DNA of 64,000 bases, taken from assembly GCA_012295275.1 (NCBI GenBank), contig CM022665.1:16368001-16432000 (forward strand). The letters are read 5' to 3'. Of this stretch, positions 1,856 through 24,190 are shown piece after piece. The first letter of the stretch is position 1; the number at the start of each line of letters is the position of its first letter. The position numbers were made by a program, and so were the translations under genes. Under the pieces are notes generated by a model. It ran no database searches, was not told the DNA's origin, and was given only the letters and a program-made list of their open reading frames with translations. The DNA is from Chrysomallon squamiferum (lineage: Eukaryota > Animalia > Mollusca).

Positions 1856-2236
1856 AGTAGCATAGTGCTAGTAGTGGTAGTTATAGTAGCAGTAGTATTA
1901 TTTCTTAGTTATTTTCATGTTCTTTTAAAAATAACTGTTATTATGATTTTAATTTTGTATGTTTACTGGTGTTTTATTTCTTATTTACTTGTCTTTTATT
2001 TTTATTTTTTTTATTTATTGAGTTTTGTTAATTTTAGTGGTGATAACAGTTGTAATAGCAGAAATAGCAGTAACTCTAATAATAGTAATGTTTTGTTATC
2101 ATGATCATCATCAACCAGTTATTACTATTATTATTATCATTATCATCATTTTTTACTTTATTATTTTTGTTAACCCATCATATTCTTACTATTACTATTT
2201 AGACTTTTTTCTTCTTCTTCTTTCTTGGTGTTGTAG

Positions 2237-5200
2237 AATGTGATTATTTGCCTTCTGAAGATGATGTTCAAAATATCAGAGAATTTGAAGAGAGTCTGAG
2301 ACAGTCCACTTCTCTCAGTTTTAATGACATAGCAAATAAATTACTTACATTATCAGTAATAACTACTGAAGAATACCAGAAAGTTGAAACAGAAAAAGAG
2401 GCTAAAAAATTTGAATTAATATTCAATATCTTAATAGTCAAAGGGCCACATCTTCACTCTCTAGCAAGCAAAATAAGTGAATATAAAGACAAAGTCAGTG
2501 GAATGGAGAAACAGCAAGGTAATTGCATATAAACAAATAAATAAATAAATAAAGTAGGTAGATGATAAAAATGATCATAACAGTAATAATAATAATAAAA
2601 ATACTACTACTAATAATAATACAATTATAAATATGATAATAAAGATGATGATTGTGATACAAATAAAGGACAAGAACAGGATAATTATAAGGGTGTTTAA
2701 CTTATGTTAATTAACTCTGCATGTGTGTTACTGTGGGTGTCCATGTATAGGTGTATATTGTTTTGTGTTTTTGTTTGTTTTCTTTTCTTCAGTTGTCCAA
2801 AGTACACAGACTACTGCACAGTCAGATGAGATATGTATTTTATCAAATGCTGATGTATCTAAAGATTGGAGACTCAAAGTATTGTTGAAAGAAATAGCTG
2901 AAGATCTTGAAAAAACTGATTATGAATACATTAAATTCTTACTCAAGGGTGGGTTGTATTTGATTGTTTGGTTGGTTGGTTGATTGAAAGGTTGCTGTTG
3001 ATTTGTTGTGGTTGGTTAGTTGATTGATTGGTTGTGGTTGATTGGTTGGTTGTTTTGATGGATACCTTGCGATTCTTGATTCATTGTTTGCTGATTTCTT
3101 ATATTTCAGTCATGTACATCTATTATAATTATCTATGTATTTGGCATTTACATCTATCCGTCACTCTCTCTCTCTCTCTCTGATTCTGTCTCTCCATGTT
3201 GCTGTCTGCCTAACATTGGTTTGTTATCGTCATGCTAATTTTTACTTTTTCACCTGTAGGTGAAACTGGATTTGATGAAGAGACACTGAAAAAATGTAGT
3301 GGACCATTAGATCTTTTTATACATCTCAAGGAAGTGAACAAAATCAACAGATACAATCTTCTCTATCTGCAAAGTCTTATGTGGCATGCAAAAAGAATAG
3401 ACCTGGTGGAAATAATTGCAAAATATGCCAACCAAAATAAGAATGAACCATTATATTTTTTCATTCCACCTGAAAAACCAGGTAAAAATTAATTAGTCAC
3501 ATTGAATATCTAAGATCAGGTGTTTGTATAAGTGATTAATATACACTAACTAAAAATTGATGGTGAATTTCAATTTGTTTAATATAATTTAAGGCATTTA
3601 TTGAATTATGCTTGACTAAATCACAGAAAATGTGTTCATTATTGAGTAAGTTTTAGTCAGGATATAAATGGGTTGAACAGTATACTATGAAATACCAGTT
3701 ACATGTATTGATGTTTCACTCTTTAATTATGCCTACATGAGTCTCCAAAACCTGACAGAGATTCACAGTTTATTTCAGTTTTATACCAGACAAATGCTTT
3801 TTAAACTTCATGGATACATACTTTGAAATTAAACTATAATTAATGCAATACAACATTACATCCAAATTATGAAAAGTATATTAAACATTGATTAAAATGC
3901 ATTAAAATCTTGTTGTGATTATTTTATTTGGTGTTTTTGTGTACATTTTTCAGCAAATGGTTACAAATATGTCAAGCTATACATTAAAGGCAGTAGTTCT
4001 AGGCTGAATAATAAAGAAAAAGAAAAGCAAAGACATCTGTTGGCTGAACTACTTTGCTTACCATTAGAATTTGTGTTCCTAGCTGGAATCGAACCATCTA
4101 ACAGTATTTTGTTAACATTCATGGTTCCAGAAATAAATATAGAACTTTTTGAAAGGCTTAATCCCACCACTGAAGGGATAACTGTGAAATTTGTTAAAAA
4201 TATCCTTACAATTAAAGGTATGTGATTCCAGTTTAATTTCTTATTTTATAATTTGCTATTCTGTTGTTTGTGGGTTTTTTCTTTGTTTGTTTGTTTGTTT
4301 TTAATTAATTCATGAAATGGTTGTCTGATATATATTATACTGATGGACAGATAGATAAGGATCAAATTAAAATATTTTTTAAGGCAAGGCAAGTGTTTAT
4401 TTGAATCACTTGTAACAAATAAACCAAAAAAAACAAAACAATTTGACAGCTCTGCAAATTTGCTGAGCTAACTTTCTGCTTTTTACCCTCTTTTATAATT
4501 GAATCTTGCCATGGGATTTCTAGTTTACAAGTAAAAACAACAGAGACACCTAATTAACATAAGACTGACTTCATTCAGTGAAATATTGTGTGATTATCGA
4601 AAATGGCTGCATGCACGATATTGTCTCGTGGAGTTGAGATATATGGAAAGGGCATGAAGCCTCAAGGTTTTATTGCAATGGGCATCATCCAGATTTTAAG
4701 ATACCAAAGCATGTAAAGGCAACAACCTAAGCATTTTGCCATCAGCATCATGGTAAACATTAAGGCCCTATGTCATGTGTGTGTGTTATCTGATATAATT
4801 ATTTACTTGCATATTATCATAGAACTGTGATAGGCTGGACAAATTGTGATTTTAGTGTTAGCATGAGATAAGGTATAGAATACAATATGTTACCATATTG
4901 AAATATTTTATATTGACAACATACTTTGTTTTACATATCAGAAATCTCTTTGGAAAAACAAGAGCCAACAGATGAAGAAATTGAGTGGGAAAAGCAAGTG
5001 AAACATCTGATGGAAAAAGAGAAAAAACTGAAACAAGTGCTGGATCTGACCTCGGCACAGCTGCTAGAAAAAAACAAACGGTTAAATGTTCTAGAACAGA
5101 CAGAGAAAGGTACATATACTTCACCTTATTTTTGCTGCTTTTCATACATATATACACACACACACATATGTCACATGTTTGCTGTTTATCTAATATAATT

Positions 5201-5520
5201 ATTTACATATCACTTTTCACAGGCAGATTATGGGACATTTCCCTGTTGCATAGAAACTTTCCCTACTAAAATAAAATAATATCATAAAGTAAAAAAGAAA
5301 GCATACACACAAATTAAAACGTCTACAAAGAAAAAGGTCAAAGTTCATTTTACAACTGATTGAAGTGAATGTAAGGATTCAGTGTGTGACTGCAGCATTC
5401 CTGCAAACCTAGCAATATGTGTCTTCTACCATCTCTCTCTCTCACACACAATAACACACACATAGAGATATCCTGTAAAAAGTTTAATTTTAAATTATAA
5501 ATATTTACATATTGTTTGTC

Positions 5521-5553
<33 letters not shown>

Positions 5554-6704
5554 TACCTAGAATATAGTCTACCACTGCTTTGTATGAATTATCATAAAAC
5601 TGAGAAAGGTATGTATAAACACACATTCTGCTTTTAGAATTAGTATAAGATAAGGTATAGAATACAATTTGATAACTCTATGTTGAAATATTTCCCATTA
5701 ACAATAACCTTTCTTTTACATAACAGGAATCCCTTTGGAAAAACAAGAACGAACAGATGAAGGAATTGAGGGGGAAAAACAAATGAAACATCTGATGGAA
5801 AAAGATAAAGTAAAACAGCTGGAAGGAGAAGAACAAATATTGTTACAGGCAGAGAAAGGTATGTATAAACACACATTCTGCTTTTAGTGTTAGTCTAAGA
5901 TAAGGTATAAACTACAACAGGATAACTCTATGTTGAAATATTTCCCAATAACAACATCCTTTCTTTTACATAACAGGAATCCCTTTGGAAAAACAAGAGC
6001 CAACAGATGAAGAAATTGAGTGCAAAAACATGATATTATCTCAGCAAAGTGAAGTAATGTTACAGACAGTTAGAAGACTGTTTATAGGTATGTTCAGCAA
6101 AGTACTGAAAGTGGGAGACTAGTTTCACAAAACAACTGATGTGGAGATGATGAAACACAGTTTTCTTTTTGTTTGTATTTGTTTTAAATTGTGTGTGTGT
6201 TTTCTTCTTCACTTTGTTGTTGCTGCTTTTCATACACACACACATACATATCACATATTTGCTATTTATCTAATATAATCATTTATTTACATATCACTTT
6301 TCACAGGCAGATTATGGGACATTTCCCTGTTGCATAGAAACTTTCCCTGCTAAAATAAAATAATATCATAAAGTAAAAAAGAAAGCATACACACAAATTA
6401 AAACGTCTACAAAGAAAAAGGTCAAAGTTCATTTTACAACTGATTGAAGTGAATGTAAGGATTCAGTGTGTGACTGCAGCATTTCTGCAAACCTAGCAAT
6501 ATGTGTCTTCTACCATCTCTCTCTCTCACACACAAACACACACACATAGAGATATCCTGTAAAAAGTTTAATTTTAAATTATAAATATTTACATATTGTT
6601 TGTCAACACAAACACACACACACACACACTCACACACACACAGAGATATCCTGTAAAATTTATGATTTTAAATTATAATTATTTACATATTGTTTGTCAA
6701 CACA

Positions 6705-6742
<38 letters not shown>

Positions 6743-6796
6743 GATATCCTGCAAAAAGTTTAATTTTAAATTATAAATATTTACATATTGTTTGTC

Positions 6797-6851
<55 letters not shown>

Positions 6852-9160
6852 TACCTAGAATACAGCCTGCCATTGCTTTGTATGAATTATCATACAATTT
6901 TGATATACTGGATACACATTAATTTTAGTACTAGTATAAGGTAATACATAGAATACAATATGATAACACTATGTTGAAATATTTCCCAGTAACAACATCC
7001 TTTCTTTTTACATAACAGGAAATCCTTTGGAAAAACAAGAGCCAACAGATGAAGAAAGTGAGAGTGAAAAATTGGTGACATTATTGCAGGACATGGAAGC
7101 AATGTTACAGACAGTTAGAAGACTGTTTATAGGTATGTTCAGCAAAGTACTGAAAGTGGGAGACTAGTTTCACAAAACAACTGATGTGGAGATAATGAAA
7201 TACAGTTTTCTTTTTGTTTGTATTTGTTTTAAAATTGTGTGTGTTTTTTTCTTTTTCACTTTGTTGTTGCTGCTTTTCATACACACACACATACATATCA
7301 CATATTTGCTATTTATCTAATATAATCATTTATTTACATATCACTTTTCACAGGCAGATTATGGGACATTTCCCTGTTGCATAGAAACTTTCCCTGCTAA
7401 AATAAAATAATATCATAAAGTAAAAAAGAAAGCATACACACAAATTAAAACGTCTACAAAGAAAAAGGTCAAAGTTCATTTTACAACTGATTGAAGTGAA
7501 TGTAAGGATTCAGTGTGTGACTGCAGCATTCCTGCAAACCTAGCAATATGTGTCTTCTACCACTCTCTCTCTCTCTCACACACAATAACACACACATAGA
7601 GATATCCTGTAAAAAGTTTAATTTTAAATTATAAATATTTACATATTGTTTGTCAACACAAACACACACACACACACACACCTTACCTAGAATATAGTCT
7701 ACCACTGCTTTGTATGAATTATCATAAAACTGAGAAAGGTATGTATAAACACACATTCTGCTTTTAGAATTAGTATAAGATAAGGTATAGAATACAATCT
7801 GATAACTCTATGTTGAAATATTTCCCATTAACAATAACCTTTCTTTTATATAACAGGAATCCCTTTGGAAAAACAAGAACCAACAGATGAAGGAATTGAG
7901 GGGGAAAAACAAATGAAACATCTGATGGAAAAAGATAAAGTAAAACAGCTGGAAGGAGAAGAACAAATATTGTTACAGGCAGAGAAAGGTATGTATAAAC
8001 ACACATTCTGCTTTTAGTGTTAGTCTAAGATAAGGTATAAATTACAACAGGATAACTCTATGTTGAAATATTTTCCAATAACAACATCCTTTCTTTTATA
8101 TAACAGGAATCCCTTTGGAAAAACAAGAACCAACAGATGAAGGAATTGAGGGGGAAAAACAAATGAAACATCTGATGGAAAAAGATAAAGTAAAACAGCT
8201 GGAAGGAGAAGAACAAATATTGTTACAGGCAGAGAAAGGTATGTATAAACACACATTCTGCTTTTAGTGTTAGTCTAAGATAAGGTATAGATTACAACAG
8301 GATAACTCTATGTTGAAATATTTTCCAATAACAACATCCTTTCTTTTATATAACAGGAATCCCTTTGGAAAAACAAGAACCAACAGATGAAGAAACTGAG
8401 TACAAAATCCCTATGACATTTTTTCAGCAGTTTGAAATAATAATAAAGGAAATTAGAAGACTGTTTATAGGTATGTTCAGCAGATACTGAAAGTGGTAGA
8501 CTAGTTTCACAAAACAACTGATGTGGAGATGATGAAACACAGTTTTCTTTTTGTTTGTATTTGTTTTAAATTGTGTGTGTGTTTTCTTCTTCACTTTGTT
8601 GTTGCTGCTTTTCATACACACACACATACATATCACATATTTGCTATTTATCTAATATAATCATTTATTTACATATCACTTTTCACAGGCAGATTATGGG
8701 ACATTTCCCTGTTGCATAGAAACTTTCCCTGCTAAAATAAAATAATATCATAAAGTAAAAAAGAAAGCATACACACAAATTAAAACGTCTACAAAGAAAA
8801 AGGTCAAAGTTCATTTTACAACTGATTGAAGTGAATGTAAGGATTCAGTGTGTGACTGCAGCATTCCTGCAAACCTAGCAATATGTGTCCTCTACCATCT
8901 CTCTCTCTCACACACAAACACACACACATAGAGATATCCTGTAAAAAGTTTAATTTTAAATTATAAATATTTACATATTGTTTGTCAACACACACACACA
9001 CTCACACACACACAGAGATATCCTGTAAAATTTATGATTTTAAATTATAATTATTTACATATTGTTTGTCAACACAGACACACACACACACACACACACA
9101 CACAGAGATATCCTGCAAAAAGTTTAATTTTAAATTATAAATATTTACATATTGTTTGTC

Positions 9161-9201
<41 letters not shown>

Positions 9202-10466
9202 TACCTAGAATACAGCCTGCCATTGCTTTGTATGAATTATCATACAATTTTGATATACTGGATACACATTAATTTTAGTACTAGTATAAGGTAATACATA
9301 GAATACAATATGATAACACTATGTTGAAATATTTCCCACTAACAACATCCTTTCTTTTTACATAACAGGAAATTCTTTGGAAAAACAAGAGCCAACAGAT
9401 GAAGAAAGTGAGAGTGAAAAATTGGAGACATTATTGCAGGACATGGAAGCAATGTTACAGACAATTAGAAGACTGAATGTAGTAGGTATGTTCAGCAAAG
9501 TACTGAAAGTGGGAGACTAGTTTCACAAAACAACTGATGTGGAGATAATGAAATACAGTTTTCTTTTTGTTTGTATTTGTTTTAAATTGTGTGTGTGTTT
9601 TCTTCTTCACTTTGTTGTTGCTGCTTTTCATACACACACACATACATATCACATATTTGCTATTTATCTAATATAATCATTTATTTACATATCACTTTTC
9701 ACAGGCAGATTATGGGACATTTCCCTGTTGCATAGAAACTTTCCCTACTAAAATAAAATAATATCATAAAGTAAAAAAGAAAGCATACACACAAATTAAA
9801 ACGTCTACAAAGAAAAAGGTCAAAGTTCATTTTACAACTGATTGAAGTGAATGTAAGGATTCAGTGTGTGACTGCAGCATTCCTGCAAACCTAGCAATAT
9901 GTGTCTTCTACCATCTCTCTCTCTCACACACAATAACACACACATAGAGATATCCTGTAAAAAGTTTAATTTTAAATTATAAATATTTACATATTGTTTG
10001 TCAACACAAACACACACACACACCTTACCTAGAATATAGTCTACCACTGATTTGTATGAATTATCATAAAACTGAGAAAGGTATGTATAAAAACACATTC
10101 TGCTTTTAGAATTAGTATAAGATAAGGTATAGAATACAATCTGATAACTCTATGTTGAAATATTTTCCAGTAACAATAACCTTTCTTTTACATAACAGGA
10201 AATCCTTTGGAAAAACAAGAGCCAAGAGATGAAGACAAGAAGTTATTTTATCAGCAACTGAAGAAATTGTTAATCATTTGTGAAGATGTGTCCAAGGTAC
10301 ATTCAGCAGATACTGAAAGTGGTAGACTAGTTTCACAAAACAACTGATGTGGAGATGATGAAACACAGTTTTCTTTTTGTTTGTATTTGTATTAAATTGT
10401 GTGTGTGTGTTTGGTTTTTTTACTTTATTTTTGCTGCTTTTCATACATGCATAGATATATACATAC

Positions 10467-10497
<31 letters not shown>

Positions 10498-10931
10498 AGC
10501 ACAAGTATTTGCTGTTTATCTAATATAATAATTTATTTACTTATCACTTTACAGAGTCAGATTATGGGGCATTTCCCATTTGGAAACATGTCCGGGCTAA
10601 AATAAAATAAAATAAAATCATGGTCAGATACAAGGTCAAAGTTTGTTTTACAACTGATTGAAGAGAATGTAAGGATTCAGTTTAAAATTATAAATATTTA
10701 CCTACTTTTTCTGAATACACACACACCCTCCCCTTACCTAAAGAATAATCCACCATTGCTTTGTTTGTATTTTCATAAAATTGTGATATACTGAACACAT
10801 TGTATTTTTTGTGTCACTATGAGATAAGGTATAGAATACAATATCTTAACACTATGTTGAAATATTTTCCAGAGACAACATTCTTTTTTTTTACATATCA
10901 GAAAAACAAGAACAAGAAAACATATATCTGA
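2237..10931 (+). CDS. Death-fold adaptor-like protein: CARD-like + death effector domain (DED) + TRADD-N-like domain + tandem exon-encoded acidic/helical repeats; 5' coding exon not identified; at least 690 aa
   Basis: AG/GT-bounded in-frame exons: 2237-2518 (CARD-like, DIANKLLTLSVITTEEYQKV...LIFNILIVKGP); 2793-2948 and 3260-3481 (DED, LLKEIAEDLEKTDYEYIKFLL...LDLFIHLKE...KRIDL with the RxDL motif); 3954-4217 (VKLYIKG...FVFLAGIEPSNSILLTFMVPE, TRADD-N-like by recollection of the motif). Repeat exons follow: 4942-5109, 5727-5858, 5977-6087, 7019-7132, 7857-7988, 8107-8238, 8357-8470, 9369-9485, 10199-10296 and 10902-10931 (TGA). The first 12 exons are all phase 1-1 with lengths divisible by 3. 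Confidence 0.8.
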
Positions 10932-11010
10932 AATTGGACTAAAAACATAAAATAAAAAATAAAAAATGAAAGCATGTAAAAGACTGCTGACACTTTAGTG
11001 TAAAGGTATA
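4800..11010 (+). repeat. Intragenic tandem duplication array (exon + intron units, with a 2.1-2.4 kb higher-order repeat)
   Basis: Ten copies of the acceptor block TATGTTGAAATATTT..CTTTTACATAACAG, each followed by a homologous exon. Three 118-bp short introns (5859-5976, 7989-8106, 8239-8356). A near-identical long-intron block (CACAGGCAGATTATGGGACATTTCCC...) at about 5215, 6300, 7350, 8680 and 9700, with (CA)n tracts. Confidence 0.95.
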
Positions 11011-11607
11011 TTCAAAGCACTGCAAATGGAAGTCTGTTTAAATATATGACACAGTGAAGATCAAACACAGTCACCATGGTGTAGCTGGGTTTTTTTAATG
11101 TTGTTTTGGGTTTTTTTTCTTGTGTGTATGGTTGTTCTGTATTTGTTTTTTCAGAGTATTTCTTTCTAATGACATTCATAAAACTTTCCTATATTCAAGA
11201 TTTTTCTAAATTCTTTTGTACCAGTCATATTTGTATTTTTTATTAAATTTAAAAAAAACAACATTTTAATGAAAATTTGATTAAATTATATTACAGAAAT
11301 AAGGTATGATGAATGAAATGATGATGTAGATGATGTAAATGATGTAAATGATTACTATTATTATTATTATTATTATGTTCTTATTATTCTTATGTTCTTT
11401 GTTACAGGACATTTTATTTTTGTAAAATGATATTGAGAAAAATATGTGGTAGCTACAATAAAAAGTTGCAATGATAAAGTTACAGAAAATTAATCAGTGT
11501 TTCAAGAAAACAAAACTGAATGTGACATAGACTTAATTTCATTCATTAAAAATCATATGGTGACTCACTAGCCTTACTAATTTTGTTTATTATATTTTTA
11601 TACCTTT

Positions 11608-12303
11608 GGGTCATTCCGTGTCAAATCACCCAATGGTTTAAACCCGACCTTCTCAGATTTTTATGAAACTTGGTATACTTGTTGACTGGGATCCCACAGC
11701 ACCAAATCTGAAATGTTAGCCCAATCAGACCAGTGGTGTGGGAGATATGGCCCACCGAATTTTGAGATTTTTGCCAAAAATGGGTGTGACCACCAACCTT
11801 AGAACCCTCATATCTCAGGAACTACTGGGCCAATCTTCATAAAATTGGTATTGTTAGAAAGGCAAAATGACAAGGATTCCAAATCTGCCTTTTTGTTTAG
11901 TTTGGAAAATATTGGAGTACCTTGACCTTTTGACCTTTGCTATGACCTTGAAATTGACCGTGTGGATCACGTGATCTTGAGATGACCTTTATTGAAATTT
12001 AATCTCCCACATGTTAACTAAAACATATAAAAGTTTCCTGGGTGTAATATTTTTTGTTTAGCCACAATATAGATTTAAAAAATGCACATACATGAAAATA
12101 ACACCTTTTCAGCCATTAACATCCGATTAACTAAAACCAAAATTCGGTGGGCCGTATCTCCCACACCACTGGTCTGATTGAGCTAAAATTTCAGATTTGG
12201 TGCTGTGGGATCCCAGTCAACAAGTATACCAAGTTTTATAAAAATCTGAGACGGTTGGGTTTAAATTTCTTTTTTTGGGGGGTGATTTGACACGGAATGA
12301 CCC
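11608..12303. mobile_element. Non-autonomous TIR DNA element (MITE), Sola2-like; copy 2, inverted relative to copy 1
   Basis: Perfect TIR GGGTCATTCCGTGTCAAATCACCC ... GGGTGATTTGACACGGAATGACCC. A 4-bp TSD, CTTT, lies at 11604-11607 and 12304-12307. Long subterminal inverted repeats; no ORF. Confidence 0.9.
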
Positions 12304-12782: not shown

Positions 12783-14621
12783 TACACATTTAATTCCTTT
12801 AAAATGTTTTTTTTTTTTTGTTTTGTTTTTTAGGGTTTCTTTAAAAAAAAATTAAAATGATTTGGAACTTGACGATTGAATTTTAAGACAGCTTGTCTGT
12901 GTGTGTGTGTTTTTTATGTTTTAAATTCCTTGTTGTTGTTTCTTTATTGTTTTTTGCAGGAAATGTATCATATTATTTTTTACTGGTATTATTTTTGATG
13001 TTATTATCAACATTATTGCTATTATTATTATTATTATTATTACTGTTAATAGTAGTAATAGTAGTGCTTGTTTCTAATGATGATTTTATTTTTTTATTTC
13101 TGTTTATTTATTTCATGCAGTTTTTATTCTTAATTATTTTGCTGAGGTTCTTTTTATATTATTATTATTATCCAAATACTAAAACATTTTAATGCTATTT
13201 CTGAACAGTAATTGATAAATAATTATGTTTAGTGATACCAGAAAAACACCCTTTTACAACTAAATATTTTATCTTATTTATATGTGAATTATCAGTTTAA
13301 TAACTTTTCTATTTATTTTTAAATGTTAATGTAAGTGATGAGAGATTTTTAATATTGCTAGCTACTGTTTTTGAGATTATATTTTATAGAAGCCATTAAC
13401 TTTTTAATCACATTAGTAAACTTTTTAATTAACATTTCATCTGACATGTTTATAAATTGCTTCATATTCTGTTTACAACTAACAGTTAGTGACTTAATTT
13501 TATATTTAATCAGATGTGTAAACAATAAAATTTACAATATTTTTGGTATCTGTGTGAACATTTGTTTGCTTATTTCATTGTTTGTTTGTAAGTGTGTTTA
13601 TATACTGTAATTTTATCTCTTTATGTGAATGAACATACAAAAGCATTTGTGTGCAAGTGTGGCCTTCTTAATAATAACATTAGAATTATTTGATCTCTCT
13701 CTCTCTCTCACCTCTGTACCTCCACACTATCTTACTGATATGCTCAGTTGTATCATAAACATATAAAATATTATTATTGCCCTGTTTATACTCATTTCTT
13801 GATGAGTCTTGAACTGAGTAAACAACTGATGATGTTGAAAGAAGCATACCAGCATGAATCATTTCAAACCAGTCTGAAAGATTTTAAAAGAAGTATTCAT
13901 TTATTCATAAACAGTAATACACTAAAGTGTCCTTGAAGTTTAATATTAACAGTAGCCTTAGTAATGATTAACCTGTAAAACAATTCTTTATTACTTTCAA
14001 ATTACTCATTTATATTTTTGAGCAAACTAGCACGATTAATAACAAAGAATAAAAAATAACACAATAAATATCTGAATGTCAATAATTTACCCTATAACAA
14101 TTGCAATCACAGCATCACTGTGTTTACAGTAGACTGACAGATATATTTCCATACACACTGGAACTGTTCTTTCAAAGTGGGGCATAGCAATATTTTGATT
14201 TAGAATTAATGAATCAGTTGATTGCTTTCATAGCTTTGCACTTTCACATTTTCAAGATTGAAGCTGCAAACTATGCCTCATAGAGTCATAAAAACTGTTC
14301 CACTACATTTAATAAAGTCTTTTGAATGTGTATATAATATATATTGCAGTGTCTTCGGTCACAGTAGAGTGTACAGTGTTTTGGAAAAGTCGAAGTGTAT
14401 TTTGAGACAAAAAAAGGCTGAGAAATGCTGGTTTTGTCTAAGATGACATTACAACTCCAGAAAAATGACAGTTTCCTGATATTTTTAGTCTATACTCTTT
14501 TTGTTTTTATACACTGGACTAAAAAAAAAAAATTTAAAAAAAAATTAAAATTAAAAAATGACTAAATAAATTATAAGAATAGTAATTTTATTATTATTAT
14601 TATAACACTAAAATGAAATAA

Positions 14622-14660
<39 letters not shown>

Positions 14661-14749
14661 TAATAAATACATTAATGCCCAGAAAAAACCTACCACAAAT
14701 GATAACATATGTATATTTATTTATACAACTATGTACAAGTGAAACTGTC

Positions 14750-16430
14750 CGGGATATATGATTATTTACATCTACATGAGTACCTCCAAACCCTTTTATT
14801 TTTTCAGTAAAACTTGGCTGCAGCTGTCTAAAAATAATTAATAACCAAGGACCCCCTGGAAACATACCGACTACCCTCGTGATAGAGTATACGGCTCGTC
14901 TGTAGCAACCTGGTATACATGGTTGGCTGCTCATACCCCTCCTGGCCTTTAAATCAGAGAGTGGGCAAAAGCCAAAGTTCCCAGTCTGTACCTGCCTCAA
15001 TTAAACGACACCCCTCGACAAAATTCATAGGTGGGCATAACTCGTCTTCCGCCCCGAAGATCAAGTATATCTACATTACCTTAACCCCCCCCCCCTCGGC
15101 AATTCGTAGGTGGGCTGAACAACTCCCCTCTGGTTCCGAAGGTGGAGAAAATTGTTCTGGCACACTGAAGCGAATCCTTGGTAATAACCTGTTCCCCTAT
15201 CGTTCAGTAGGTGGAATCTAACCCTGGGCCAGATGAACTTTAGCTCTAAGCAAATGATGTTCTGAATCTGAACTTTGTTATGAGTTCTTGCCATGTCATT
15301 CGACCCCAGCCGTAAAATGACAGCATTAGATGAGGGTTTGGGATTAACTTACCTGAAATAAAACTGTCTAGCTGCGACCACCGCATTCCCTTGATACCAT
15401 ACCGTGATACCTTGATACCTGACTGCTGCAAAACCTAGGTTGCCTCCACCTAGCTTTGCCTGTGCCTGGATTCCTGCAAGTGGACAAAGGAAGTTCCAAT
15501 TATCCGCATTTCATTATTTTCTACTATCGGCAATTTAACTATTTAAATATGACATAAACAAATTAAATTTCTTGTGGCTGCCGAATACCTACTACGCATG
15601 ATCGCCACCTGCCCCACTATTTAATTGTATCCTCTGGTAACCCCCTAGTTGCAGCTTCTCGTGCTGCTCCTGTTCTAAAGCATGAGATTTATAACATTGA
15701 CCTTTTACATTTATAAACTGTAATATGCGTTTGAGAACAGAGTCAAACTGGTACCTGGTTAATGACTTACCAGTATAATGATTAAGAAGCGTGATTGCAA
15801 ATATTTATACAAACCTCGCAGTGGACAGACGTTTTCACTTGCGAAACTGTCGAGATGCAGTAAATAACCATTACCTCTTTGATCATTCTTAGACTTCCTT
15901 ATTGGAAGTTTTTCTCCAGCTCTAAACTTGAAGATAACATCTTGTATCCCAATTGCTCTGTTCGAATTGTCACCCTGTTTTCTGGCTGTTATTTCTCTTT
16001 CCCGTAAGAATGGAAAGAAGGCCTGTTTGAAAGCTGTTACAAATAACCTTGCCTCAAACTGAGATGAAAAAGCATTTGGTGACAAAATAATTGGTTTGCG
16101 TTTGTCTATGTCTGCAGGTCCCTTACGTAATCCTTCAAAAGTTTTGAAATGACAAAATGCCTTATAGGGTCCCCTTTCCCCTTAAATTTGTGCCAACTAC
16201 TCATCCCACTAATACATGTTTTTATGTAGGTGGAATTAACTGCTGTAATGACAGGAAAACAATAAAATGGACTAAGTGATCCACAGACATTGGCCGTCGT
16301 GGAGGAAATCCAAATTACAGTCTAAATGTTTCCAATTGTTTTTCAGCATTATGGTAAGTTCTCCATGTCAGACTTGCCGTTGAATTCCTTAGCAACCTAT
16401 CTGCCTCTGTTGTCAAAATTATCATACTTG
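14750..16430 (-). mobile_element. Decayed DIRS-order (Ngaro-like) tyrosine-recombinase retrotransposon fragment: YR pseudogene followed by SGNH-hydrolase pseudogene
   Basis: Minus-strand YR motifs: LLRNSTASLTWRTYHN (about 16390), AFFPFLRERE, IRKSKNDQRGNG, CPLRGLYKYL (ORF 15759-16085), then YKSH./FRTGAA...GLPEDTIK*WGRWRS (about 15700-15590) with a frameshift and a stop. Downstream SGNH-like motifs: IIGTSFVH, GGGNLG, GIKGMRWSQL, LGSNDM (15510-15290). No RT, RNase H or gag seen. Confidence 0.8.
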
Positions 16431-17299: not shown

Positions 17300-19830
17300 T
17301 AAAAACATACGTACAAAGTAAAAACATTACAAGGACACTAATACAGAACAAGCATTCAGATTATACTAAGTCACGAACGCGGAACAAGCATGCAGACTCT
17401 ACTAAGAGACGGAGACAAAACAAGTATGCACATTACAAACATACGAAAACAGAACAACCACGCAGACTACACAAGGACACTAACACGGAAAAGGTATCAA
17501 TACTAAACAAAGACACGAACACACAACAAGCATGCACACTATACAAAGACAACAACACAGAACAAGTATACAAACTATACAAAGACACGAACACAGAAAA
17601 AGCATGCAAACTGCACAAACACAAGAACATAGAAAACGTATTCAGACTAGACAAAGACATGAAAACAGAACAAGCATACAGTCTATAAAAAGACACAAAC
17701 ACAAAACAACTATACAGACTATACAAAGAACGAACACAGAACACGCATGCAGACTATACAAAGATACAAACACAGAAGAAGCAAGTAGACTATACGAAGA
17801 CACGAACATAGAAGAAGCATGCATACTACAAAAAGACACGAACACAGAAGATGCATGCAAACTATATAAAGACACGACAAAAGAACAAGCATGAAGACTA
17901 TACAAAGACACGAACATAGAAGAAGCATGCATACTATACAAACACACGAACACAAAACAAGCATGCACACTACAAAAAGACACGAACACAGAAGAAGCAT
18001 GCAGACTATACAAAGACACGAACACAAAACAAGCATGCACACTACAAAAAGACACGAACATAGAAGAAGCATGCAGACTATACAAAGACACGAACACAAA
18101 ACAAGCATGCACACTACAAAACAACACGACAAAAGAACAAGCATGCAGACTATACAAAGACACGAACACAAAACAAGCATGCACACTACAAAAAGACACG
18201 AACACAGAAGAAGCATGCAGACTATACAAAGACACGAACACAAAACAAGCATGCACACTACAAAAAAACACGACAAAAGAACAAGCATGAAGACTATACA
18301 AAGACACGAACATAGAAGAAGCATGCATACTATACAAACACACGAACACAAAACAAGCATGCACACTACAAAAAGACACGAACACAGAAGAAGCATGCAG
18401 ACTATACAAAGACACGAACACAGAAGAAGCATGCAGACTATACAAAGACACGAACACAAAACAAGCATGCACACTACAAAAAGACACGAACACAGAAGAA
18501 GCATGCAGACTATACAAAGACACAAAACAAGCATGCACACTACAAAACACAAAAAACAAGCATGCAGACTATACAAAACAACACAAAACAACACTACAAA
18601 AAAGAACAAGCATGCAGACTATACAAAGACACGAACACAAAACAAGCATGCACACTACAAAACAACACGACAAAAGAACAAGCATGCAGACTATACAAAG
18701 ACACGAACACAAAACAAGCATGCACACTACAAAAAGACACGAACACAGAAGAAGCATGCAGACTATACAAAGACACGAACACAATCAAAGCATGCACACT
18801 ACAAAAAGACACGAAAAAAGAACAACGATGCAGACTAAAAAGACACTAGCAAGAACAAACATGCAGACTGTACTAAGACACGAACACAGAAGAAGCATCA
18901 ACACTAAACAAAGACACAAACACATAACAAGCATGCAGACTATACAAAGACACGAACAGAGAACAAATATTCAGAATATAAAAAGACGAACACAAAACAA
19001 GCATGCAGACTATACAAAGACACGAACACAGAAGAAGAATGCAGACACGAACACAAAACAAGCATCAACACTAAACAAAGACACAAACACATAACAAGCA
19101 TGCAGACTAGACAAAGACACGAACAGAGAACAAACATGCAGACTATAAAAAGACTCGAACACTGAACGAAAAGGCAGACTATAAAAAGACATGAACACAG
19201 AACAAGCATGCAGACTAAACAAAGACACGAACACAGAAGAAGCATGCAGACTATACAAAGGCACGAACAGAGAACAAATATTCAGAATATAAAAAGACGA
19301 ACACAAAACAAGCATGCAGACTATACAAAGACACGAACAGAGAACAAAAATGCAGACTATAAAAAGATACGAACACAGAACGAAAATGCAGACTATAAAA
19401 AGACTCGAACACAGAACAAGCATGCAGACTGTACAATGACACTAACACGGAACAAAGACACTGTACAGAAACAACAAAACTGAACAAGGACGCAGACTGT
19501 ACAAAGGCTCGAACAGAGGATGAGCTTACATATGAAAAAGGCTTTACAAAGACACTAAAACAGAAGGAGCATTACGGCTGTACAAAGAGGGTTACAGAAC
19601 AAGCACGTAGACTGTACAAAGAGAGTTACAGAACAAGCATGCAGTTTGAAGAAAGACTTGAACTAAGAACCAACAATCAAAGTCACAGATAAATTATACA
19701 GTGGAAACGAAAATAGGTACGGACATCTAGATTGTACAAAGATACAAAGTATAGATAAACGGAGACTGTATAAAGATACGAACATGATACGAGTATGCAG
19801 ATAATGAGAAACTGAGAAAGATACTAAGTC
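17300..19830. repeat. 36-bp minisatellite with 72-bp A/B alternation
   Basis: Unit GCATGCAGACTATACAAAGACACGAACACAAAACAA alternates with GCATGCACACTACAAAAAGACACGAACACAGAAGAA. The ORF track shows 12-aa periodicity (SMQTIQRHEHKT). Homogeneous core at about 17790-18800, degenerate edges. Confidence 0.95.
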
Positions 19831-21890: not shown

Positions 21891-24190
21891 TCAGACGTCT
21901 GTTTCCTTTCTTGTACAGAGCCGTACCTGAAACGTTTACAAAGAGTATAGTATATGTACTGCGTGAACAGTGAATTAAATATAAAGAATTTAAACAAAAC
22001 AGTGCAGACGGTCTACACAAATTATTTTAATTAGTGATTAATATAGCTGTGTCAGCGTTATGACATTAATGGGTGTGGGTAGTTGTGAAAAGGTAATGAA
22101 CTACTTTTGTCCTGAAAATTAGCGTGACAACTGTTCACAATGAATAATGTAATAAAAACTAGATTAACTGTAAATGAAGGAACGAAAAATATTTACCTCG
22201 CTCATTATTTTCTGGGCCGATTTTTTATGATGGTATTTAGCAGCAGATTTCAATAAAAATTCTTTTTCAGCGTTACAGCTACATCGATTAATAAGGTCCC
22301 AGCATGCATTTTGAAGATCATGTAATTCAAACTCTGCAGAGGCACAAAGTAAACCTATAATGTAATGAATAAATATTATAAAACATTCAATTATACTGAT
22401 TAAAAGCATGCGTTGCATAATTGGGGGGAACAAAACCTTAACGCATGTTGATATTGTTAAAAACGGTCATTTGCACGTTTATAACTAGACAAAAACATCT
22501 ATAATAATAATAATAATAAACCGAAATAAAATAAAACGCCCAAAGCAAATAAGCAGTAGGCCTAATATAAACCAGCAAGTTGGAAGCTTTAAGTTTTGGT
22601 CAAAGTACACACAATATTCCTTTATTTTTATTATTGTTGTTGTTGTTGTTGTTTGTAATAATTAATATTAATTTCTAATCCACAGTATGGATTATAAAAA
22701 AAATTACTCTTTGATTTAGATCTAGTTTATTACACTCATTTATTTTACTTGTGTAATACTTTCAGGGGAATACGCTTACCTACAACCACTCTCAGATCAA
22801 TGGTGATTTTTCCGCAATGTAGAAACTTGATTAATCTGTAAAATTCTTCTTCACTGTAATCTTCTATTGGAATGACCAAGTGATCAGATGACCGATGTCG
22901 GCATGATCTCGTTCTTTGCGATCGAACCTTGTCAGCCTGTCTTTGGTGCTGCAGAAAAAGCTGATAGAGAACTCTGGAAAAATAAACGAGTAAAGAAAAA
23001 TCAGTGATCATATATCTTTGATAATATGGATTTCTTAAAGTATGAAACTTGAGTCAGATAGCTACAAAATGTAGGTAAATAAATATGTTTAAATATTCAT
23101 CTTGAGCAAAAGTGTTGTTTAAAAATTATAACAGTGATGATTATATGACATTATATCAGTGGTACTTATTGCTTATCAGGTGCGTTTAGTTGTAATTTAA
23201 CGATTTCTATTAATAATATAAGAATAGCAATAAAACCGCATTTGATGAATTATAAGTGTTCTGCTCTATAATGAACCTCAAGTTAGTAATTTAAAATTGT
23301 TAAATATGTGATGAAGGCTTACACTTTTTTCCTTTTTTTTTTTTCATTCTCAGAAAACAGTTATTTAAAAAAAAAAAAAAAAAAAAGTAATTTTGAATTC
23401 AGAAGTGATTATTGATCTATTTATTTACCTGCTTCTAGTGGCAAGAATCGCCTTGACTCCGTAAACCGGCGCTCGGTTTCGTCCGACTAAAAACTTAATA
23501 TTGCACATTTCCGGCATAGTCGTTATGAATTCAAGACTGTTAAACAGGCTTCCGGTACTGCTGAAAAACATCATCTCCCCCGGACAAGATAAACCGGAGG
23601 GTGGGGCAGCAGAACTGTGGCCATCGTCAGAAGAATCACTTGACTCGTAGCCAGACGAAAACGAAAGTTCTAAAAAGACAAGATAATGGAAATAATATTA
23701 GTGGATTTATACGCTTGAAAGTAAATGGATAAACAGAACAAAGAAAGCGGAAGAAGGAAAAGGAATTGGAACTGTAGATTAATTCAAATATAAAAAAAAA
23801 ATAATAATAATAAACTGAAAAAAACACACAAAAAAACACACACACAAACACAACCCCCCATTATAAACCCCCACTGATTTTGAAGTATATTGTTAATAGC
23901 TTTAATAAGATATTTTGAAAATAATTATCTAATCATATATATTTTATGTGCTTCCTTAATTGAAAAGTTATAAAACTGTTAAAATAAAACGAAAGCAATA
24001 ATTACATACAGATATATACGAGTAATAACATAATCGTTTAGTCATTGTTTTTGCCCCTACATTGCCATTATTAACTATAATAATAATTAGCAACGCAAAG
24101 ATTAATATTTCAGTTTAAAATACCTTCTTCCCTGCCAGCGTTCAATACGTCAGATTCTACCAAACAAGCTCTGGAATCGTAACGGTCCAT
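21891..24190 (-). CDS. BTB/POZ domain protein, short 'serine-enriched protein-like' family; 231 aa
   Basis: Exons 24190-24124 (MDRYDSRACL...), 23669-23429 (SSGYESSDSSDD...MPEMCNIKFLVGRNRAPVYGVKAILATRS), 22973-22780 (RVLYQLF...IPIEDYSEEEFYRLIKFLHCGKITID), 22354-22197 (GLLCASAEFELHDLQNAC), 21926-21891 (VRLCTRKETDV*). All introns GT-AG with consistent phases; 696 nt. Confidence 0.88.

Follow-up and report, generated by a model that had tools for sequence, protein, structure and literature searches.

An array of ten cassette exons follows exons for death-fold domains

A 64-kb stretch of the genome of the mollusc Chrysomallon squamiferum (assembly GCA_012295275.1, contig CM022665.1, positions 16,368,001 to 16,432,000 of the forward strand), which contains no N and is referred to here as the window, carries on its plus strand four exons (A to D) for CARD-like, DED and TRADD-N-like regions, followed by an array of short homologous exons that we call cassettes c1 to c10 (Table 1; all coordinates are window positions). 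A constant motif recurs in ten copies on the plus strand between 4953 and 10901, and re-examination confirmed the number, positions, lengths, phases and splice sites of the ten exons as a first-pass annotation, made by a model from the letters alone, had described them. Cassettes c1 to c8 all have AG/GT ends, phase 1-1, lengths that are multiples of 3 and a used frame free of stops. The used frame has no stop in any of the nine cassettes c1 to c9, while either other frame has 2–7 stops in each. The sole frame-breaking cassette is c9, and the shift there alters only the last few residues: the stop in c10 is reached by 10942 in either entry frame, after 13 residues if c10 is entered in phase 1 and after 9 if it is entered from c9. 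A frame-neutral arrangement with one repeat per exon thus holds for 8 of the 9 internal cassettes.

Because c2, c5 and c6 are nearly identical (0–1 differences in 132 nt), the array amounts to about seven distinct cassettes, and the most divergent copies are the outer ones, c1 and c10. The shortest introns of the array measure 118 nt. No LRR or TPR Pfam match was found in the seven cassettes scanned (array lengths 98–168 nt). A relic end of a c2-type exon, with a perfect donor and the rest of the exon absent, occurs at 5602, 7732 and 10074, in the introns about 118 nt upstream of c2, c5 and c9; these relics mark crossover points and are candidate cryptic donors.

Table 1. Exons, duplicated units and intron arms of the cassette array and its upstream region
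Feature	Position	Strand	Description
Exon A	2237..2518	+	Phase 1-1; CARD-like helical domain
Exon B	2793..2948	+	Linker and first part of DED
Exon C	3260..3481	+	Second part of DED
Exon D	3954..4217	+	TRADD-like N-terminal domain
Cassette c1	4942..5109	+	168 nt; homologous to the coiled-coil start of relatives
Cassette c2	5727..5858	+	132 nt; c1 type, shortened
Cassette c3	5977..6087	+	111 nt; variable-core type
Cassette c4	7019..7132	+	114 nt; variable-core type
Cassette c5	7857..7988	+	132 nt
Cassette c6	8107..8238	+	132 nt; identical to c5; 250-nt tandem unit
Cassette c7	8357..8470	+	114 nt; variable-core type
Cassette c8	9369..9485	+	117 nt; variable-core type
Cassette c9	10199..10296	+	98 nt; penultimate, frame-shifting, own frame open
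Cassette c10	10902..10942	+	Degenerate last copy carrying the stop; AATAAA just downstream; relic donor 11005
2.3-kb higher-order unit	5602-7892 and 7982-10234		Two copies, 95.4% alike
Intron arm R	5286..5336	+	First of five identical copies; others start at 6370, 7417, 8752 and 9768
Intron arm L	6165..6215	+	First copy; identical at 8547 and 9563, variant at 7210
Intron arm L, last copy	10373..10418	+	Variant; in the intron without an R arm

The upstream exons belong to a mollusc DED and TRADD-N-like family

The domains that the first-pass annotation had assigned to the upstream exons were borne out, clearly for the DED and weakly but consistently for the TRADD-N-like and CARD-like regions. 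The DED is split between two exons, each part falling under the Pfam cut-off (E 0.008 for exon B and 1.1e-7 for exon C). Exon A gave a CARD match in Pfam at E 0.052 and a 36% match to the relative P0003 (Gigantopelta aegis XP_041350594.1). Its model, with a predicted local distance difference test (pLDDT) score of 85, retrieved CARD-type structures in 9 of the 10 top Foldseek rows, the remaining title being uninformative; the best CARD match (probability 0.89, E 0.32, TM about 0.5) was short of significance. Exon D matched PF20694 at E 3.3e-4 and 20.9 bits, under the cut-off of 23.7, and carries a serine that is invariant in 32 relatives. The corresponding region in the model of P0001 (Gigantopelta aegis XP_041350592.1) has an alpha/beta pattern, and no solved TRADD-N was among the matches listed by the structure search.

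A search with exon D found 67 relatives. Among 20 that were looked up, 15 carry names, and all 15 are mollusc proteins, which agrees with the mollusc setting proposed at first pass; the relatives by themselves place the window in a mollusc, probably a gastropod. The closest named relatives are the two Gigantopelta aegis proteins, 53–62% identical over exon D, whose genes have consecutive locus numbers. In the model of P0001, a helical N-terminal domain is followed by a DED, an alpha/beta domain and a long helix at 331-415, then by a helical hairpin and, at the end, a small helical domain. Residues 132-220 of the model superimpose on the DED of FADD with Z 14.4 and a root-mean-square deviation of 1.5 over 87 aligned residues.

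The relatives also indicate where the array came from. Cassette c1 aligns to residues 341-370 of P0001 with a score reached by 0 of 500 shuffles (profile E 3.3e-6), which makes c1 a homologue of the segment where the coiled coil of the relatives begins. For their remaining ~300 residues, nothing significant beyond the c1 match was found in the 64 kb by tblastn with seven relatives or by a profile of 30. With the tail unmatched and c1 representing the start of the coil, the window therefore appears to hold a copy without the family tail in which the coil-start exon has been multiplied. The gene is a member of a mollusc DED and TRADD-N-like family and lacks the family's long tail within the window; in the account proposed below it is a lineage-specific copy.

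The array itself appears in none of the relatives: a diagonal scan found an array-type repeat in 0 of 51 relatives of at least 200 residues. Three of the 51, from two clusters, have unrelated repeat tails (P0025, P0051 and P0074, from Elysia crispata and Pomacea canaliculata), with short terminal repeats after the TRADD-N-like domain (shifts of 19 and 21 residues); such tails may have arisen independently, or the gene models may be wrong. Other searches gave weak negatives: no homologue of c1 among 213 candidates, one of 56 candidates for exon D in another homologue search, and only P0001 and P0003 among 7984 sequences scored with a 32-sequence profile. A metagenome contig scan with exon D yielded 409 pattern matches and no relatives, and Atlas yielded nothing usable for the tail of the relatives. 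Derivation of the variable core from the relatives' next coil segment was also considered; local alignments were inconsistent, a post-hoc tail profile ranked that segment first in P0001, second in P0003 and outside the top four in P0012 (Haliotis asinina XP_067675738.1), and we leave it as a lead.

Reading frames are kept open and exon cores outpace their introns

At first pass, different exon lengths that all keep the frame had been taken to point to coding selection. Exons A to D are already phase 1-1 with lengths that are multiples of 3, as are c1 to c8; the phase of the cassettes was therefore inherited and is no evidence by itself. By our count the lengths reflect about five independent net changes, four of them in frame and that of c9 out of frame, which has a chance of 0.045; an alternative count, with three of four in frame, gives 0.11. 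The frame argument alone is thus marginal and had been overstated. Coding selection is nonetheless supported by the stop-free frames and by the codon models described below. Under neutral change the chance of staying stop-free is 0.11–0.16 for c3, c4, c7 and c8 and 0.07–0.10 for c1, c2, c5 and c6, or about 0.01 jointly when we multiply the chances of the two groups.

Variation between cassettes is concentrated in the exon cores. Across c3, c4, c7 and c8, variable sites number 29 of 75 in the core, compared with 4 of 100 in the next intron stretch (Fisher p 5e-9), 4 of 36 at the exon start and 3 of 197 in the intron beyond; with c9 added, the counts are 38 of 62 for the core and 7 of 100 for the next intron stretch. 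Between c3 and c7, which correspond in the 2.3-kb duplicate, 17 of 111 exon sites differ, versus 30 of 1854 intron sites (p 1e-10), while the differences between c2 and c6 (1 in 132) and between c4 and c8 (4 in 114) are not elevated over the introns of the duplicate. Codon models for c3, c4, c7 and c8 put omega at 4.5–5.8 in the core (p 0.039 against 1) and at 0.2–0.4 in the first 12 codons (p 0.18). We consider that the variable cores are likely to reflect diversifying selection on an amino-acid patch.

The array introns carry complementary arms

Two intron elements of 51 nt, R and L, are complementary at 42 of 51 positions (Watson-Crick). L lies about 78 nt past the donors of c3, c4, c7, c8 and c9, and R lies 154 nt past L after c3, c7 and c8, with a similar arrangement after c4; R also follows c1. 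Each end of the array therefore has an unpartnered arm, R without L in the intron after c1 and L without R in the intron after c9. The predicted L-R duplex has an energy of -49.3 kcal/mol (-43 with the two variant L copies), compared with -21.9 +/- 3.3 for shuffles, 0 of 500 of which were as low. The intron fold had a z of -2.84, with 2 of 100 shuffles equally good. Any R can pair with any later L, giving 15 computed pairs, and after each resulting loop-out the reading frame still closes in c10. Tandem exons surrounded by competing complementary intron elements are thus a computed feature of the locus.

The array is a mosaic of duplications

The introns of the two 2.3-kb copies are 98–100% alike, and 2 of their 8 gaps are multiples of 3. 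Tiles of the array match other copies at many offsets (250, 1016, 1047, 1335, 2130, 2350 and 2382), c3, c4, c7, c8 and c9 have unique cores, and the longest exact repeat is 368 nt, which together make the array unlike a single assembler duplication. A one-copy assembly error is possible at c5/c6, which share an exact repeat of 202 nt. We infer that the array grew by unequal crossing-over with its introns homogenised by gene conversion, and from the similarity of those introns the locus looks young.

One element flanks the gene on both sides in opposite orientation (1100-1856 and 11607-12303). It has inverted ends, which are 90% alike in the downstream copy, and the two copies match over 521 nt at 83%. 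It resembles a small DNA transposon and might facilitate rearrangement of the locus.

Spliced transcripts come almost wholly from relatives of the window copy

Parts of 2200-5300 are present in nine public runs from three studies. The share of the words of that region is 0.76 in one DNA run and 0.66 in another, from a different study, and one of the two is possibly from the source sample. Contigs of four runs were compared over 2200-5515, that is, exons A to D and c1. Among the DNA and RNA contigs there are several divergent versions of each exon. In both RNA runs (X8 and X9), exon bins were covered, several intron bins had zero depth and exon D was joined to a c1-like exon. The RNA contigs on A to D and c1 were mostly 86–97% alike to the window, and the spliced transcripts therefore come from relatives; among the matches listed, 0 of 36 in X8 and 3 of 67 in X9 reached at least 99%. 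These contigs leave c1 after the shared part and run on into other sequence. Loose ends lie at 4997 and 5070, where relatives in X8 and X9 depart from c1 at different points past the constant segment, so the c1-type exon varies between paralogues too. In DNA run X1, exact contigs cover the 5' part, and one contig runs on as a c2-type exon.

A hint that the window's own c1 is transcribed was not counted. In X8 the window letters make up ~2.9 of a depth of 77-104 and, by bin arithmetic, end near 5110; the DNA runs drop in the same bin too, and the library may contain DNA. Run X7 showed only other letters at five listed exon sites, and that animal could lack the window copy, which we note as a lead only, since absence cannot be read from contigs. 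The accessible part of PMC12373286 gives general context on the presence or absence of immune genes.

A variable helical tail is proposed and weighed against alternatives

We propose that the locus is a coding paralogue whose short-exon array encodes a variable helical tail that diversifies under selection, with predicted block skipping. In such a protein, the CARD-like and DED domains would serve to recruit death-fold partners, and the TRADD-N-like domain, placed where the constant part meets the variable one, would act as a switch, as the accessible text of PMC8195603 proposes for such proteins. Each variable cassette would add an acidic linker and a short, partly amphipathic helix, and the tail would present a variable surface for binding or as bait, whose diversity would arise in the germ line and perhaps through block skipping as well. 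Local pairing of each L with the R 154 nt downstream would keep all exons open, while pairing of R with a later L, in a shifted register, would loop out c2-c3, c4, c5-c7, c8 or c9, or runs of these. As a whole this account seems to us evenly poised between right and wrong; the skipping step, its least supported part, is by itself doubtful. Further still, one can imagine a combinatorial receptor system in which RNA stems, changing register along the homogenised introns, select among positively selected helical cassettes for each transcript, a single locus produces many different tails, and CARD/DED signalling or decoy action is thereby turned toward changing microbial targets, a proposal that we hold to be improbable. 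The adaptor diversification put forward at first pass is thus partly supported, through its domains, its mollusc setting and coding selection, and weakened where it leaned on the frame argument; it had missed the loss of the ancestral tail, the contrast between hypervariable cores and homogenised introns, and the complementary arms that offer a mechanism for skipping.

Several results weigh against the proposed variable tail. The codon models used four recombining sequences, with a boundary chosen post hoc and one inserted c8 codon omitted, and the whole-exon omega of 1.9–2.5 was not significant (p 0.24). Synonymous differences in the core are raised too (2 in 19.7 sites, p 0.01 versus the intron rate), and conversion mosaicism therefore accounts for part of the contrast between core and intron. 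Amphipathicity was significant in only 2 of 7 cassettes. The exon with the start codon was not located in the window, the window copy is at best a minor transcript, and RNA support over the compared stretch ends at c1, with none for c2 to c10. As for the arms, they are of low complexity and exceed control DNA only slightly in energy (-43.8 for the L-R duplex versus -40.3 for the best of 48 control stretches in the window, on a common grid), G-U pairs make up three of the nine mismatches by our reading, which is no enrichment, and duplication can multiply an old intron hairpin without any selection.

Much of this would be expected of a truncated paralogue in decay or with hardly any expression, the array being a by-product of unequal crossing-over at a repeat-rich locus, its frame symmetry inherited and its core/intron contrast left by conversion tracts. 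RNA contigs nearly all from other family members, an ancestral tail unmatched in the window, a frameshifted c9, a whole-exon omega not different from 1, divergent synonymous sites in the core and the lack of a start exon in the window all fit such decay. Exons A to D and c1 to c8 are nevertheless open with intact splice sites, at a joint stop-free chance of ~0.01, four of five length changes are in frame compared with two of eight intron gaps, and the split in omega between core and constant part points to selection, so that we regard decay as unlikely, though a serious contender.

If the locus is coding, all cassettes might instead be included constitutively, giving one protein of ~690 residues with a repeat tail, hairpins that fold locally and diversity in the germ line only, by allele or copy-number change. 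The acceptors and donors are all similar and intact, introns as short as 118 nt can be spliced, an R 154 nt from L favours local pairing, and the resulting length roughly matches that of the relatives. The first R, however, is transcribed ahead of any L and has no local partner, and the R-L pairs are nearly equal in energy (-43 to -49), so that competition is expected if the stems form; we judge constitutive inclusion to be quite unlikely.

A choose-one cluster of the Dscam type would produce mRNAs with c1 and one cassette or block, and hence short proteins that each have a single variable helix. According to the accessible part of PMC6071210, mutually exclusive clusters are typified by homologous exons in tandem whose introns offer competing pairings, but here five R and five L replace one docking site with many selectors, the arm pattern permits full inclusion, and c2, c5 and c6 are redundant, which makes this design very unlikely. 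It can barely be credited that assembly expansion accounts for most of the array, or that it is two haplotypes in tandem, as the near-identical introns of the 2.3-kb copies and the exact c5/c6 repeat might suggest, given the many different offsets, the unique exon cores, the modest longest exact repeat, the X1 contigs that match the 5' part exactly and run into a c2-type exon (though X1 may be the source sample), and the six or seven cassettes that remain even minus one 2.3-kb copy.

Surroundings of the gene

Downstream, a minisatellite (17328-19515; 36 nt, 61 copies) has a strong A skew and open frames of up to 322 codons in several frames. It was considered as a last exon and dropped, being 6 kb away, with broken frames and unmatched in the relatives. 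The region 14600-16400 has higher GC and broken minus-strand reading frames without a Pfam match, which we take to resemble a tyrosine-recombinase mobile element. Further genes of the window encode a translation-factor-type GTPase (PF00009; 38183-43365, plus strand) and a kinesin (PF00225; 53411-60579, minus strand), and a gene at 22164-23697 (minus strand) without a Pfam match is presumably BTB-like; all three look like ordinary conserved genes.

Relation to known systems

Among the nearest counterparts are uncharacterised mollusc proteins of ~550-680 residues (for example P0001, P0003 and P0012), which share the CARD-like region (present in all of the three named), the DED, the TRADD-N-like domain and the start of the coiled coil (29–62% per exon) but have some 300 extra residues, modelled as a long coil, a helical hairpin and a small helical end domain, that are unmatched in the window. 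Competing intron pairings have been described for Dscam. The accessible part of PMC8195603 describes invertebrate expansions in which DED and TRADD-N are constant and the flank is variable, and reports mollusc expansions for bivalves. As far as that text goes, the present gene has in common with them a constant death-like domain and TRADD-N-like domain, the latter at the variable junction, several paralogues and a marine invertebrate host, whereas their variable part is a globular effector or repeat domain that is swapped, and that of the present gene is an array of short exons which derive from its coiled-coil exon.

The claim at first pass that no gene of this architecture is described was too broad as to the general design, which is known from brown-algal LRR-ROCO genes and Dscam, and stands for death-fold adaptors: we found no paper on such an array in one, in a literature search that mostly did not cover subscription journals. 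The accessible parts of PMC3341825 and PMC11378527 report, for brown-algal LRR-ROCO and NB-ARC-TPR genes, arrays of frame-neutral repeat exons with shuffling, positive selection on part of the exon and alternative splicing. In these texts the arrays share with ours one repeat per frame-neutral exon, and have a candidate immune role; they differ in having fixed-length exons that encode LRR or TPR solenoids, whereas the cassettes here vary in length, encode a linker and a helix, and follow a death-fold signalling part. In the accessible part of PMC6071210, duplication of an exon together with its stem-loop arms is argued to produce competing structures, and the docking-site and selector clusters of Dscam1 share with our array tandem exons duplicated with complementary intron arms and competing pairings. 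Unlike in Dscam1 as presented there, both arms are multiplied here and one is unpartnered at each end, which predicts block skipping instead of a choice of one; this is known here from computation at one locus.

The locus bears on how immune proteins may be diversified and how competing RNA structures arise. Diversification of immune proteins by splicing is well shown for arthropod Dscam and has been proposed for brown-algal LRR exons. A mollusc intracellular death-fold adaptor, if the proposal is true, would extend it to a new class of proteins. The duplicated stem-loop model has so far been argued mostly from older clusters, and a young locus could directly show how duplication of an exon with its intron hairpin creates competing RNA structures. 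Even without alternative splicing, the array would be a clear case of exon cores outpacing their introns, in a family without known ligands.

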